Of a stretch of 33,090 nt of DNA, positions 26,892 to 32,217 are shown piece by piece; position 1 is the first letter of the stretch; every line of letters begins with the position of its first letter. Below the pieces are notes generated by a model. It saw only the letters and a program-made list of their open reading frames with translations, was not told the origin of the DNA and did not search any database. The DNA lies in contig CALRIB010000002.1 of the NCBI GenBank assembly GCA_943359705.1, positions 1-33,090 of the forward strand, given 5' to 3'. Made by a program: the position numbers and the translations under genes. Origin of the DNA: Candidatus Nomurabacteria bacterium. Lineage in GTDB: Bacteria > Patescibacteriota > Minisyncoccia > Phycocordibacterales > UBA2100.

Positions 26892-29279
26892 CTATCGAGG
26901 GATTCGTTTGGTCTCGCCCCAATTCTTCCCTATCGAAATTTCCGCAACGATGGGCACTCCGCGTAATTGTTTTGCGTCGATTACAGATTCCATGATGCGG
27001 CGCAATTCACGGGCGATTTTCTCCGCTTCTTTCTCGTCGAGTTCGTACACCAGTTCGTCGTGCACCTGCAAGAGAAGTTCGGCCTTTTTCTCCCAGCCCT
27101 CCTTTTTGATGAACGCATCCGCCTCCGCCATCGCAAGCTTGATGATGTCGGATTGCGTCCCCTGCATCGGCGCATTGATGGCCATGCGCTCCGCTTGTGC
27201 ACGCATGTTGGGCATCGCCGATTTGAGAGCAGGAAAATAGCGACGGCGACCGAAAATCGTCTCGGTGTAGCCGAGCTTGGTAGCTTCTGCTTTCGTCTTT
27301 TCGACGTATTCCGCAAGGCCGGAGAATTTTTTGAAATAGTCGTCGAGGAATTTCTGCGCCTCGTCGCGCGTCACACTGCCGCCGAGATTTGCGCGGAGTG
27401 CATTCACGCCCATGCCGTAGAGAATGCCGAAGTTGATGACCTTGGCGCGGCGGCGCATTTCGTAGTCCACCTTTTCGGGCGGCACGCCGAAAACTTCAGA
27501 GGCCACGGCAGTGTGCACGTCGCCGCCGCTTTTGAACACTTCAATGAGTTTTTTGTCGCCCGAAAGACCTGCCGCGATTCGCAGCTCTATCTGCGAGTAG
27601 TCAATCGCCGCGAAGACCTTGCCCTTCGAGGCGGCAAATGCGCGGCGGATACGCTTGCCGTTCTCGGTCTTCACCGGAATATTTTGGAGATTCGGATTCT
27701 GACACCCCATTCGCCCGGTGGTGGTCCCTGTCTGCAAAAATTCGGCATGGAGACGGCCGTCGGGCGCGATGAGCGCGGGCATTTTCTCGATATAGGTGGA
27801 GAGAAGTTTCTGCAGTTCGCGGTATGCGAGCACTTCATCGATGATCGGGTGCAGAGACGAGAGTTTTACGAGCTCATCTTCCCGCGTCGTGCGTGCGCCG
27901 CCCGCCGTTTTCTTCTGTTTCTCGGGCAAAATTTTTAGTTCGTCGTAGAGCACGACGCCGAGTTGTTTGGGCGAGTTGATATTGAATTCGTGACCCGCGT
28001 GCGCGAAGATTCTGCCCGCGATTTTTCCAAGCTCCGTTGAATATTCTTTGGAAAGGCTTTTGAGATACGCGGTGTCCACAAAAATCCCCACCTCGTGCAT
28101 TCGCTCCACTATTCCGATAAGCGGCTTTTCTATTTTTTCGTACACGTCCTGCAGTCTTCCTGTTTTCTTCAGCGCCGCGAAGATAAACTCTCGCGCTTTT
28201 TCAAAATCCTGTGCGCCGGCGTACCGCAAAATCTCTTCGAGCGATGGGTTGGTCGTGTCTGAATGCAAAAGCCACAGCGCCACCGCGGTCTCCTTCAATA
28301 CTTGCTCGTCGGGTGCAGCGGCTTCCGGCTCCGCTTCGTACGGCTCGTCGAATGCTTCCGCCGCCACGCGGCTGATGCGTTCCTTGAGCGAACGGAATTC
28401 GAGCTCATCACACATCGCAACAGCGGTAGCCGCGTGGTCTTGAATTCTCCAATGGTGGTCGGGCAATTCGAATTTGATGGGCACGTCAGTGCGAATAGTC
28501 GCTAGCACTTTCGAAAGTGTCGCGCTCTCGCGGCCGGTCTTCAAGAGCTCCACGATCCGCGGCTTCACATCTTTGGCAAACGCGTCCGGCTCCGTGTCGA
28601 GCGACTCGTATATTTTTTCTATCGGTCCGAAACCGTCGATGAGCTCCGTCGCGGTTTTCTCGCCGATGCCGCGCACACCGATAATCCCGTCCGAAGGGTC
28701 ACCGCGAAGCGCTTTGTAATCGACGATATGTTCGGGCCCAAAACCGTAGCGCTCTCGCACGCGGTCTTCGTCGTACAAAACCGTGTCGTTCAAACCTTTG
28801 CGGAGCGTGTACACCTGCACGTGCTTCCCTTCTACGAGCTGCAACATGTCCGCATCTCCCGAGGCAATGACGACGTCGACGCCCTCCGTCTCTGCCGCCT
28901 GCTTCACGATAGAGCCCACGATGTCGTCAGCCTCAAACCCCACGGCTTCGTACACGGGAATGCCGAATGCTTCAAACACTTTCGGCGCGCGCTTGAGCTG
29001 CTCGATAAGTTCGTCATCGGCTTTCACGCGCTTCGCTTTGTATTCTTCAAACAATTCATGGCGCACCGTCGGCCCCGGCAAATCGCGCGCGGCGACGATG
29101 TAATCGGGCTCAAGGTCGTCGATGAGTTTCAACACCATCGACACGAGTCCGTAGAGCGCTCCCGTCGGCTCGCCTTTCGACGATGAAAAGTCGGGTATCG
29201 CGTGGTATGCCCGATGCAAAATGGCGTGCGAGTCGAGTATCACAAGCCGCTGCGCTTTCGACGTTTTTTTCTTCGCCAT
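26892..29279 (-). CDS. polA: DNA polymerase I (5'-3' exonuclease plus family A polymerase; intervening 3'-5' exo region short and without visible DxE motif)
   Basis: N-terminal FEN-like domain (LVILDSHAILHRAYHA..., GIGEKTA). Motif A DYSQIELRIAA, motif B RRRAKVINFGILYGM, motif C LQVHDELV. Confidence 0.9.
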   Translation of the reverse strand: MAKKKTSKAQRLVILDSHAILHRAYHAIPDFSSSKGEPTGALYGLVSMVLKLIDDLEPDYIVAARDLPGPTVRHELFEEYKAKRVKADDELIEQLKRAPKVFEAFGIPVYEAVGFEADDIVGSIVKQAAETEGVDVVIASGDADMLQLVEGKHVQVYTLRKGLNDTVLYDEDRVRERYGFGPEHIVDYKALRGDPSDGIIGVRGIGEKTATELIDGFGPIEKIYESLDTEPDAFAKDVKPRIVELLKTGRESATLSKVLATIRTDVPIKFELPDHHWRIQDHAATAVAMCDELEFRSLKERISRVAAEAFDEPYEAEPEAAAPDEQVLKETAVALWLLHSDTTNPSLEEILRYAGAQDFEKAREFIFAALKKTGRLQDVYEKIEKPLIGIVERMHEVGIFVDTAYLKSLSKEYSTELGKIAGRIFAHAGHEFNINSPKQLGVVLYDELKILPEKQKKTAGGARTTREDELVKLSSLHPIIDEVLAYRELQKLLSTYIEKMPALIAPDGRLHAEFLQTGTTTGRMGCQNPNLQNIPVKTENGKRIRRAFAASKGKVFAAIDYSQIELRIAAGLSGDKKLIEVFKSGGDVHTAVASEVFGVPPEKVDYEMRRRAKVINFGILYGMGVNALRANLGGSVTRDEAQKFLDDYFKKFSGLAEYVEKTKAEATKLGYTETIFGRRRYFPALKSAMPNMRAQAERMAINAPMQGTQSDIIKLAMAEADAFIKKEGWEKKAELLLQVHDELVYELDEKEAEKIARELRRIMESVIDAKQLRGVPIVAEISIGKNWGETKRIPR

Positions 29280-29451
29280 TACCGATGATGATACCCTTCC
29301 GGTTTTTAATGTCGAACAGGATAAAACTTACATAACAAAAGCCCTCGTCAAAAAATGACAAGGGCCCATCAAGATGCCGGCGGATCCGGAGAGACCGAAT
29401 GTCTCGAGCGATGCTCCATCTTGTAGAAAGATCAAACAGCCGGGAAACCTT

Positions 29452-29478
29452 GGCGGGGGTGTCCATGACACCCCCGCC
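29452..29478 (-). terminator. GC-rich hairpin after the orphan gene (possible terminator, weak U-tract)
   Basis: GGCGGGGGTGTC-cat-GACACCCCCGCC, 12-bp perfect stem, 17 nt downstream of the stop at 29495. No clear T-run. Confidence 0.35.
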
Positions 29479-29494
29479 GCGGCCCCAGAATCGG

Positions 29495-30025
29495 TTATTT
29501 CGTCGTAGTGGCGGACGAAAGCGCCGGTGTCGGTTTCGCAGTACCTTTCGGCATCTGCGCATCTGGGTTCGACTTCGCACCACCCACAAACTTAATTGCG
29601 AACTTTTGCTTGATGATGATGCCGTCGGGCACCACTTCTCGCGCGCGCTCATTGATGAGCTGTTCGCAAAGAGATTTGAGGGGATTCTTAGGCGAATCCG
29701 ACAAGGGGAGCGCGATACGCTCCGACTTCAATGCAATCGCCTGCATGACGACATTGGACAAAGTGCGGCGGACATGGCCGAGCTTCAGGAAATTCTCAGG
29801 CGTCGGGTCATCCCCGTCGACTAAGAGCTTCACGTAAGCGTTGGCCAGAGTCTTCGCAAACTCCGTCTCTTTGGGCGTGGACAAATTGAATCCGCGCACC
29901 TCGATGCCGTCACACAGCTGTTCTTCGACTTGCTTCCGCGCCACGCGGAAGAACCCAAAAAACCCTCTCCGCTTTGCGGGAGTCGCATTTGAAGTGGAAG
30001 TAATCGCCTTGTTGTCATTCTTCAT
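29495..30025 (-). CDS. Hypothetical protein (no recognisable domain), strongly promoted
   Basis: ATG 30025 (MKNDNKAITSTSN...) preceded by GGAG 9-12 nt upstream, one of the few clear SD sites in the window. Track start 30043 is GTG. No TM or signal peptide; Lys/Pro/Thr-rich tail. Confidence 0.6.
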   Translation of the reverse strand: MKNDNKAITSTSNATPAKRRGFFGFFRVARKQVEEQLCDGIEVRGFNLSTPKETEFAKTLANAYVKLLVDGDDPTPENFLKLGHVRRTLSNVVMQAIALKSERIALPLSDSPKNPLKSLCEQLINERAREVVPDGIIIKQKFAIKFVGGAKSNPDAQMPKGTAKPTPALSSATTTK

Positions 30026-30139
30026 GACTTTTCTCCAGCGCACATCTACAGGGGTTACCCCGGGTGCGCCTGCCAGGGCAACTCACTACGCTCGAAAAGC
30101 GCACTGAGTTGCCCTGATTTCTGGCTGTAAACTTTATAG

Positions 30140-30168
30140 AGTATAGCACTAAATGGGAGATAAGTCAA
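30140..30168 (-). promoter_or_regulatory. Near-consensus sigma-70 promoter for the orphan gene
   Basis: Minus strand TTGACT (30163-30168), 17 nt, TATACT (30140-30145). -10 context gtgcTATACTct is identical to that of the sRNA promoter at 32190-32217. Confidence 0.65.
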
Positions 30169-30237
30169 GGGCTTAAAAAGCCCACCCCCAGGCCACGAAA
30201 CAGCCCCCTCCCCCACGGGTGCGATACAATAGAAAGA

Positions 30238-31932
30238 ATGACGACGCAGTTCAACGACAAGAAACAGGACGAGCGGCTGCACGAGCTGCATGTCAAAGAG
30301 GAGGAACAGCTGGCGGAAATGCTCGCGCAGAAGTACGGCGTCGAGTACGTCGACCTCACTTCCAAATCAATCGACACCGACGCACTGCGCCTCATCTCGC
30401 AGGCCGAGTCGGAGGCGAGTGAAGTGGCGGCCTTTCGAAAGATAAACAAAAAAATATTCGTCGGCATGCGGTCGCCCGAACGCGACGATTCCCTCAAGTC
30501 GATACAAACGCTTGAACACCTCGGCTACCAGGTGCAGCGCTTCATCGTCTCGCACGCTTCCCTCGTGCATGCGTGGGATAGATATCACGACCTCTCGTAC
30601 GCGACCGAGACAGAAGCCGGCGTGCTCACACTTTCCAACGAAGTTATCCAGCAGATGTTGCAGAAATTGAAGGCGCTCGAAGACGTGCGCACCGAGATCG
30701 GGGGCTTCTCTACGAGCAAAGACACGCACCGCATCTCGCGCATCTTGGAAGTCATCATGGCCGGCGCGCTTAGCTTAGGTGCCTCCGACGTGCACATGGA
30801 ACCGGAAGAAGAGGGTGTGCGCATGCGGTATCGTCTCGACGGTGTGCTCATCGAAGTCTTGATATTCGACGCCGTCACCTACGGCCTCATTTCCTCGCGT
30901 ATCAAATTGCTCTCCGGCCTCAAGCTCAACATAAAAAACGCCGCGCAAGACGGACGCTTTTCGATTCAAGTGAGCGAGAAAGAAATTGAAATACGTACTT
31001 CTATTCTTCCCGGCGCGTACGCGGAAACTATCGTGATGCGTATTTTGGACCCGACCACCATCGCACTTCCCATGGAGCGCCTAGGTTTTGATAAATATCT
31101 GATGGATATTTTCAATATCGAAATCGCAAAGCCAAACGGCATGATACTGAACACCGGCCCCACCGGCTCGGGTAAAACGACGACGCTGTACGCCTTCCTA
31201 AGGCAGGTCGCCAACCCCGGTATCAAAGTGGTCACTATCGAAGACCCTATCGAATATCACCTGCCCGGCATCGTGCAAACGCAAGTTTCCAAAGACTACA
31301 CTTTTGCCGAAGGCCTCCGCTCCACTCTCCGCCAAGACCCCGACGTCATCATGGTGGGTGAAATTCGCGACGCCGAAGTGGCTTCCACTGCCATCAACGC
31401 GTCACTAACTGGGCACTTGGTATTTTCTACGCTTCACACCAACGACGCCGGCGGCACCTTCCCCCGCCTCATCGACATGGGTGTGAACGCTGACATCTTG
31501 GGCGCCGCGGTCACAACGGCGATGGCACAACGCCTCGTACGACGCCTCTGCCCGCACTGCCGCGAGGAAAAAATAATGGATGATGCAGAAAAAGCGCTGA
31601 TGGCACCGCTGCTCGCCAGCATCCCCCATCCCGAGGAAGTCCCCCCAAACAGAGACAAGATGTGGATAGCAAAAGGTTGCGCAAAATGCGGCGGCATCGG
31701 GTACAAAGGCCGCATCGCGGTCGTGGAAGTTATTCTCATGGACAAAGAAGTGGAAGAGTGTGTGCGCCATACCTCATCCGAGCGCGACATTTGGCACGCC
31801 GCCAAGCACCAAAAAATCCGCCGCATGTCGCAGGACGGCGCCGTGAAAGTGTTGCAAGGCGTTACCACCCTCGACGAACTCGGCCGTGTCGTCGACCTCC
31901 ACGACGAAGTGATGTTGGAAACTATTTCGTAG
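30238..31932 (+). CDS. pilB: Type IV pilus assembly ATPase PilB (GspE family)
   Basis: Walker A GPTGSGKTTTLYA, Asp box/Walker B DPDVIMVGEIRD, His box GHLVFSTLHTNDA, tetra-Cys CPHC...CAKCGGIGYKGR. TACAAT 7 nt upstream of the ATG. Confidence 0.9.
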   Translation: MTTQFNDKKQDERLHELHVKEEEQLAEMLAQKYGVEYVDLTSKSIDTDALRLISQAESEASEVAAFRKINKKIFVGMRSPERDDSLKSIQTLEHLGYQVQRFIVSHASLVHAWDRYHDLSYATETEAGVLTLSNEVIQQMLQKLKALEDVRTEIGGFSTSKDTHRISRILEVIMAGALSLGASDVHMEPEEEGVRMRYRLDGVLIEVLIFDAVTYGLISSRIKLLSGLKLNIKNAAQDGRFSIQVSEKEIEIRTSILPGAYAETIVMRILDPTTIALPMERLGFDKYLMDIFNIEIAKPNGMILNTGPTGSGKTTTLYAFLRQVANPGIKVVTIEDPIEYHLPGIVQTQVSKDYTFAEGLRSTLRQDPDVIMVGEIRDAEVASTAINASLTGHLVFSTLHTNDAGGTFPRLIDMGVNADILGAAVTTAMAQRLVRRLCPHCREEKIMDDAEKALMAPLLASIPHPEEVPPNRDKMWIAKGCAKCGGIGYKGRIAVVEVILMDKEVEECVRHTSSERDIWHAAKHQKIRRMSQDGAVKVLQGVTTLDELGRVVDLHDEVMLETIS

Positions 31933-32183: not shown

Positions 32184-32189
32184 GAGGAG

Positions 32190-32217
32190 AGTATAGCACG
32201 TTACGCATTAATGTCAA
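32190..32217 (-). promoter_or_regulatory. Consensus sigma-70 promoter driving the candidate sRNA
   Basis: Minus strand TTGACA (32212-32217), 16 nt, TATACT (32190-32195). Confidence 0.65.

Follow-up and report, generated by a model that had tools for sequence, protein, structure and literature searches.

What would a long, structured 5' leader do in front of a small gene, in a bacterium in which most first genes seem to start without one? The question is raised by a gene for a 176-residue protein in the window, by which we mean the whole stretch of 33,090 nucleotides analysed, belonging to contig 2 of a 780-kb genome assembled in 77 contigs and 86% complete. Bacteria of the CPR (Patescibacteria) are uncultivated, and very little is known of their gene regulation; a search of the literature on leaderless starts and Shine-Dalgarno (SD) use, and on cis-regulatory RNAs of these bacteria, brought up nothing relevant. 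The locus occurs in four sequencing runs, all of them DNA metagenomes of lake water or watersheds, with no RNA run among them. An earlier note, made from the letters of this DNA, had singled out the gene as an orphan with a consensus promoter, a structured leader and a real SD, and had suggested that its product is abundant, which finds no support in these DNA runs, and that its expression is controlled post-transcriptionally.

A Single-Gene Transcription Unit

The features of the locus are collected in Table 1. The TTGACT-17-TATACT promoter proposed in the earlier note is present on the minus strand and matches the consensus at 10 of 12 positions, being one of two promoter-like sites in 2 kb in a consensus scan. 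The 176-aa locus is a self-contained single-gene transcription unit that extends from this strong extended -10 promoter to an intrinsic terminator, whose stem shows compensatory changes among homologous loci. The -10 context had also been said to recur at a small-RNA promoter, and the identity is exact over 12 nucleotides: GTGCTATACTCT has exactly two copies in the window, at 30138-30149 and 32188-32199 (both minus strand), against 0.03 matches expected by chance (mean of shuffles), and the second copy is the promoter of a small-RNA gene between pilB and ruvB. This extended -10 context may be the signature of one class of strong promoters in the organism.

Table 1. Features of the 176-aa locus, its neighbours and its remote relatives (window positions unless a locus is named)
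Feature	Position	Strand	Basis or remark
pilB-type ATPase gene	30238-31932	+	divergent neighbour of the 176-aa gene
Sigma-70-type promoter, TTGACT-17-TGcTATACT	30140-30168	-	consensus scan
-35 box TTGACT	30163-30168	-	followed by a 17-nt spacer and the -10 box
-10 box TATACT	30140-30145	-	extended by TG at 30147-30148
Leader, ~108 nt, with hairpins P1 and P2	between predicted transcription start site (TSS) near 30133 and ATG 30025	-	predicted
P1 hairpin	30074-30116	-	MFE and centroid folds; same hairpin in 7/7 loci
P2 bipartite hairpin	30037-30070	-	individual folds
SD GGAG (30033-30036), 7-nt spacer, ATG (30023-30025)	30023-30036	-	sequence
CDS, 176-aa basic protein	29495-30025	-	translation
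3' UTR, ~160 nt	29331-29494	-	terminator scan, inverted repeat
GC hairpin in 3' UTR	29452-29478	-	inverted repeat
Near-invariant block in 3' UTR	29375-29409	-	comparison of loci
Intrinsic terminator, then T run	29339-29367	-	terminator scan
polA	26892-29279	-	other neighbour of the 176-aa gene
Remote subfamily loci	L014:1399-1821, L015:1402-1881 (genomes G116, G149); also L131, L132	-	profile search; strand given for L014 and L015

The earlier note had set this gene apart from the other first-gene starts, and a crude count agrees: among 358 first genes of the genome, a TAnnnT box 5-9 nt ahead of the ATG (leaderless type) is seen in 116, versus only 43 that have an SD-like tetramer, a number close to chance level by rough estimate. 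There is no TAnnnT box 5-9 nt before ATG 30025. The two flanking genes, polA and pilB, both look leaderless: the polA start (29288-29315, minus strand) is of the form TCGACA-16-TATCAT, with a box ending 8 nt before the ATG, and at the pilB start (30224-30237, plus strand) a TACAAT box, kept in the homologous loci L002 and L007, ends 7 nt before the ATG. The census and the leaderless-type starts on either side make a leadered, SD-led unit exceptional in this genome.

The Protein and Its Family

Compared with its closest relative, P0002 (71% identity, from a 1.2-kb ENA contig), the gene has a dN/dS of 0.25, and the differences at codon positions 1, 2 and 3 number 39, 22 and 69, hence 69 of 130 at the third position; judged by this pattern of substitution, the gene is a real one. 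Its product has a pI of 9.8, a disordered basic and aromatic N-terminus (KRRGFFGFFR) and a tail rich in Pro, Thr and Ala. An AlphaFold2 model built on a 7-sequence alignment comprises an alpha/beta core (residues ~50-150, pLDDT ~85-93) between disordered ends, the N-terminus being modelled with low confidence. Within the subfamily, six of the seven proteins have a pI of 9.5-10.3, and the N-terminal 45 residues reach pI 10-11.8.

The designation of this protein as an orphan without a recognised domain is half sustained. Pfam and NCBIfam gave no match to it, even at E <= 10, and neither did PHROGs, PADLOC or a PDB sequence profile. Fold searches with the model returned nothing above background (Foldseek against the PDB, best E = 0.23; ESM Atlas by shape and by features, TM-scores <= 0.38; VIA-align wide, best Z = 4.7). 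The orphan status is what needs softening. Besides P0002, an exhaustive phmmer search of 1.84 billion representative proteins identified five further homologue clusters (P0003-P0007, 50-31% identity). Word-indexed searches with the single protein or a profile added only 1-3 proteins, and a back-translated scan of JGI metagenomes and GTDB genomes with a family alignment yielded no relative. Profile searches revealed that the genus also contains P0008 and P0009, two remote subfamilies (hhalign probability ~90%), the P0009 branch having at least five close relatives in public data. Even when these are included, the superfamily is found patchily in 5 of the 116 genomes of the genus, in 0 of 35 other genomes of the family and in 0 of ~395 genomes of the order's other families. 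"Orphan" is too strong a word: as far as these searches reach, the gene is a member of a small and very rare family, confined to a single genus and carried by a few uncultivated ultra-small lake and groundwater bacteria.

The remote subfamilies share part of the arrangement. P0008 and P0009 are preceded by TTGACA-17-TAnnnT promoters and by leaders of ~90-100 nt, which are not significantly structured (z = -1.5 and +0.6), and their proteins are devoid of the N-terminal Arg/aromatic motif.

Fold of the Leader

Both hairpins described in the earlier note, one with a 12-bp stem and one of the form GCGCAC...GTGCGC just upstream of GGAG, are found in the predicted folds (Table 1). The P1 outer stem counts 12 bp (CAGGGCAACUCA/UGAGUUGCCCUG) and is followed by a 1x1 mismatch, a 7-bp inner stem and a variable loop. 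In P2, an outer stem of 7 bp (GGCGCAC/GUGCGCU) is split by an asymmetric internal loop (1 nt / 5 nt) from an inner stem of 5 bp (CGGGG/CCCUG) closed by a UAAC loop, and the apex carries a conserved GGGYAAC. The fold of the 116-nt leader reaches -51.9 kcal/mol versus -33.0 +/- 3.5 for shuffled sequences (z = -5.36), none of 200 shuffles equalling it. A hairpin of the P2 type, GGGGYARCCCC, exists in a single copy in the 780-kb genome, which points to a dedicated cis element. The SD of the window locus is predicted to be unpaired with a probability of 0.81.

These features dispose of two classes of regulatory leader. A terminator scan detected no terminator-like site or U run after P2, the leader contains no AUG-initiated mini-ORF, and the stop-like UAA of the P2 loop is not conserved, being CAAC in three loci. 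Having neither terminator nor leader peptide, the leader is excluded from attenuation of the trp or T-box type. An RNA thermometer of the ROSE or fourU type was also rejected: the SD lies outside P2 and is predicted open, and the hairpins are very stable (-52 kcal/mol for 116 nt).

Conservation across Seven Loci

The close subfamily comprises seven loci (the window, L002, L007, L009, L010, L011 and L012) in four kinds of neighbourhood: pilB/polA (window, L002 and L007; pilB and a 706-aa gene in L012), mreB (L009), groES/secG (L010) and ubiA (L011). All seven keep the same layout of promoter, leader, P1, P2, GGAG and ATG. The TTGAC of the -35 box is invariant, a TG-extended TAnnnT box follows at a spacing of 16-17 nt, and the predicted leaders are 108-123 nt long. 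P1 begins 14-32 nt after the -10 box, which corresponds to ~7-25 unpaired nucleotides if the TSS is at +7, and P2 ends 0-3 nt before the SD. GGAG and ATG 30025 lie where the earlier note had them, and its SD is real, since GGAG precedes the ATG by 7-9 nt in 7/7 loci.

Folding each of the seven leaders singly gives the same two hairpins. In the RNAalifold consensus, P1 has 23 pairs, with double changes in 10 of them. MAFFT aligns P2 by GGGYAAC and not by its pairs, because the register of the inner stem shifts by 2 nt in L009 and L011; the helix positions were therefore read from the individual folds rather than from the MAFFT alignment. Counted in this manner, the P1 outer stem is paired in 79 of 84 cells, with compensatory changes at 6 of 12 positions, and the P2 outer stem in 48 of 49 cells, with compensatory changes at 5 of 7; for neither stem do any of 2000 column shuffles match the pairing. 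As column shuffles ignore relatedness and only about five lineages are independent, the covariation support is good but not overwhelming. The earlier note had asked for the leader to be aligned in relatives and inspected for covariation, and the outcome is that the two-hairpin fold is kept, with compensatory changes, in all seven homologous loci.

The primary sequence of the leader is conserved as well. Leader identity to the window ranges from 52 to 76%, and reaches 90% between L002 and L007. Identity at codon position 3 amounts to 36-43% and is saturated beyond the 71%-identical L002; for all homologues beyond L002, leader identity is far above it, and in most comparisons it equals or exceeds identity at codon positions 1+2. 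The RNA thus evolves more slowly than its protein. The conserved positions are the nine lower pairs of P1 (CAGGGCAAC/GUUGCCCUG) and the apex of P2, while the P1 apical loop, the internal loops and the P2 outer stem vary or covary. The heptamer GGGYAAC occurs twice in each of the seven leaders (minus strand), paired in the P1 5' arm (30108-30116) and at the P2 apex (30052-30062). It is kept in L009 and L011 despite the shifted P2 stem register, so that the sequence itself, and not only the pairing, seems to be selected.

A covariance model built from four loci recovers the other three at 28-32 bits, finds one copy in the genome of the window and gives no real match in 150 genomes of the same family without the gene. 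One match of 18.7 bits in genome G079 was discarded, as it is a GC-rich coding hairpin with no homologous ORF. That sequence (L147, G079:C32:839-946) folds at -72 kcal/mol over 122 nt within a high-GC coding-like stretch and may come from a contaminant contig. A degenerate DNA pattern of the P1 3' arm, P2, SD and ATG was equally uninformative: its 60 + 51 matches are all due to chance, with no family ORF, and the model scores at most 25 bits away from the pattern.

The Rfam scan suggested in the earlier note assigns the leader to no family. With Rfam 15, only tRNAs of the window pass the gathering threshold, and at E <= 10 the segment 29250-30300 has no match on the leader strand. Two weak matches were rejected: Atu_C4, over the leader, lies on the opposite strand (14 bits versus a threshold of 80), and Spot 42, at 29333-29427 (27.7 bits versus a threshold of 80), coincides with the terminator region and is not a homologue. 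As far as sequence comparison goes, the two-hairpin leader is a previously uncatalogued, family-specific RNA motif that is inherited together with the gene.

Taken as RNA, then, the leader is very probably a real, selected element tied to the 176-aa gene. That it is a structured and probably regulatory cis element, as had been proposed, is supported by its z-score of -5.4, the compensatory changes in 7/7 loci and its slower evolution relative to the CDS. The same observations bear on the idea that a transcription factor uses the inverted repeats as an operator in the DNA, or that they are functionless chance hairpins. Three GGGYAAC-like heptamers (two direct, one inverted) downstream of the promoter would suit a DNA operator, but the compensatory changes fall outside the heptamers, in the distal P1 outer stem and the P2 outer stem, the spacing of the arms varies from 21 to 31 nt, the fold has the z-score given above, and the structure is retained in seven loci. 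We consider both versions barely credible.

What the Leader May Do

The SD is predicted to be unpaired with a probability of 0.5-0.87 in six of the seven loci. The default state would then be "on", which does not correspond to a self-sequestering switch, and repression would need an external factor. With an open SD and no conserved loops resembling a pocket, any control would have to come from a trans-acting factor or from RNA turnover. Post-transcriptional control of the 176-aa gene, suggested in the earlier note, is what we infer from this leader.

Tentatively, and with somewhat less than even confidence, we read the leader as an operator to which an RNA-binding protein attaches in trans. 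The likeliest binder would be the gene's own basic product, through its N-terminal Arg/aromatic segment. Bound at P2, which abuts the SD, and possibly at P1 as well, it would block loading of the 30S subunit, and the outcome would be autogenous translational repression of the ribosomal-protein-leader or phage-operator kind. In the unbound state, the ribosome-binding site would be open and the gene expressed from its strong promoter.

Several observations count for an operator. The P1-P2-SD-ATG layout is identical in seven loci spread over four neighbourhoods, both helices covary, and leader identity stands above that of codon position 3 and mostly at or above that of positions 1+2. The covariance model recovers the loci of the family and nothing in the genomes without the gene, P2 is found within 3 nt of the SD in every locus, and the conserved nucleotides are placed in the stems and the P2 apex and not in the internal loops. 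The proteins are basic, strongly so in their N-terminal 45 residues. Co-inheritance of leader and gene (7/7 loci with the gene, 0/150 genomes without it) and a structure next to the ribosome-binding site are what an autogenous operator displays. CsrA and Hfq were not found in the 86%-complete genome, which also counts for a protein operator. The P0008 and P0009 branches, in which both the Arg/aromatic motif and the structured leader are missing, speak for it too, although with two contrasting groups only this co-occurrence amounts to a weak correlation; if the basic charge and the position of P2 against the SD are added, a protein operator is indicated and, most economically, the product itself as its ligand. 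Against an operator, the protein has no recognisable RNA-binding fold and the model of its N-terminus is of low confidence; protein operators are not usually conserved within fully paired stems, and such conservation could instead reflect alternative pairings; and the covariation rests on seven loci from about five independent lineages.

Autoregulatory leaders and operators of this kind are known for S15, L20 and ThrRS, the MS2 coat-protein hairpin, T4 RegA and gene 32. As in these systems, a structured 5' leader is inherited with one gene, a hairpin abuts an SD that is otherwise open, the gene encodes a basic protein, and the RNA is conserved above the protein. Unlike them, the 176-aa protein, here a candidate binder, is neither ribosomal nor a known RNA-binding protein; the leader has no known primary RNA target to imitate, and there is no sequence or Rfam relation.

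The main rival is a role of the leader in mRNA stability or processing, since the genome encodes RNase III (PF14622, 138 bits, contig 47) and RNase J, with CsrA and Hfq undetected. P1 would be a substrate of RNase III, or P1 and P2 would act as roadblocks to 5'-to-3' decay by RNase J. With 12 + 7 bp and a single mismatch, P1 is a near-continuous duplex of ~20 bp, and such a duplex in a genome with an rnc gene is what an RNase III-processed leader requires, cleavage itself being a prediction. In either case the protected mRNA would be among the few with a long leader, in a genome dominated by leaderless starts, and the SD is open as in stabilisers of the STAB-SD or aprE type. Known 5' UTR stabilisers and RNase III-processed leaders include the two-hairpin 5' UTR of E. 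coli ompA, B. subtilis aprE, the cryIIIA STAB-SD, pnp and rnc; like them, the present leader has two stable hairpins followed by an accessible SD, and its P1 is long enough for RNase III. Shape suffices for stabilisers and RNase III sites, however, whereas in the present leader the sequence itself is kept at 9 of the 12 outer P1 positions and at the P2 apex, across lineages with saturated synonymous sites. Moreover, P1 is not predicted to sit at the 5' end, as in leaders of the ompA/aprE type: a predicted single-stranded stretch of ~7-25 nt precedes it, longer than classical 5'-terminal stabilisers tolerate. We regard a stability role as unlikely, though worth weighing.

The sequence conservation of both P1 arms might also stem from a three-way pairing constraint, if the leader were an RNA switch exchanging 1:2/3:4 for 2:3 pairing when a ligand, temperature or a factor holds the P1 5' arm. 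The P1 3' arm (GUUGYYCYG) could pair with the P1 5' arm but equally with the GGGYAAC segment of P2. Every locus allows a 2:3 duplex of 9-12 bp on paper, which reaches into the linker and in L010 shows an apparent G-C to A-U exchange there. Yet when the P1 5' arm is blocked, the predicted folds of six of the seven loci keep P2 and form no 2:3 duplex. The rearrangement would neither hide nor free the SD, no SD-sequestering fold being created in the predictions, and the leader lacks a leader peptide, a terminator with a U run, a conserved internal-loop pocket and an Rfam match. A switch by alternative pairing is therefore improbable. The generic riboswitch fared no better as a class and was rejected: neither the internal loops nor the P1 apical loop are constrained in sequence, leaving no ligand pocket, and no SD-hiding or terminator fold exists; loops of this sort and an open SD make any riboswitch reading weak. 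Tandem-hairpin riboswitches such as guanidine-II (mini-ykkC) and NAD+-I (nadA) likewise have two hairpins in a short leader before the SD. In contrast to those, the present leader has two unlike hairpins, with neither conserved ACGR-type loops nor bulge pockets, its gene is not a metabolic one, and Rfam gives no match at E <= 10.

A last alternative is that of a dual function, in which a stable small RNA, set free from the 5' part, acts elsewhere and the ORF only shares its promoter. The strong promoter has its 12-nt -10 context in common with the neighbouring small-RNA gene, and the hairpins are compact and stable; against this, neither terminator nor U run follows P2, P2 abuts the SD in every locus, and the RNA is never seen without the gene. 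Such a release is very improbable.

To return to the protein operator, its strongest form would be a previously unknown RNA-protein pair in CPR, in which the product, with a fold that has no known relative, recognises the GGGYAAC hairpins of its own mRNA, possibly by its Arg/aromatic N-terminus. This is possible but doubtful. If true, it would establish a novel RNA-binding domain along with a novel class of autoregulatory RNA, in organisms whose genes otherwise mostly do without leaders and ribosome-binding sites; binding of the leader RNA by the protein would by itself reveal a new RNA-binding fold. Since most first genes look leaderless, a long covarying leader with a true SD, kept across diverged lineages, is a rare and clear example of a 5' UTR under selection. 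The leader motif is new, comes from a phylum that has been little studied and is strictly linked to a protein family that is itself rare and confined to one genus. An RNA of ~85 nt with a 176-aa protein offers a concrete, small test object for post-transcriptional control in CPR. Its importance is limited by its rarity, only seven loci being known, in one genus.

Genomic Setting of the Unit

The pilB-polA spacer, which holds the leadered gene in the window (29280-30237), is occupied differently in 12 other genomes of the genus (L134-L146). Eight contain tsaE (Pfam PF02367, E = 6e-33), two have an empty spacer of 43-61 bp, and two have 203-288 bp with no ORF of at least 50 aa facing polA. The 176-aa gene is present at this spot only in the G000 lineage and the L002 and L007 contigs. 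A tblastn search with two tsaE products did not find tsaE in the own, 86%-complete assembly.

The predicted promoter and terminator and the patchy distribution (5 of 116 genomes) are features of a moron-like or horizontal cassette, but the GC content of the unit (0.53-0.56) is like that of its flanks, with no deviant composition, and PHROGs and PADLOC give no match. No flanking repeats were found around the unit, and a mobile cassette bounded by such repeats was rejected.

The 3' UTR contains a further conserved stretch, the near-invariant block of Table 1, of ~35 nt with two small hairpins (GAGAC...GUCUC and CCGG...CCGG). It is 91-97% identical in L002:1079-1113 and L007:1167-1200, though the proteins are 45-71% identical. 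The block is partly kept in L012 and is absent from the short 3' UTRs of L009 and L011. A further functional RNA element may lie here, such as a small RNA derived from the 3' UTR or a site bound by a protein.
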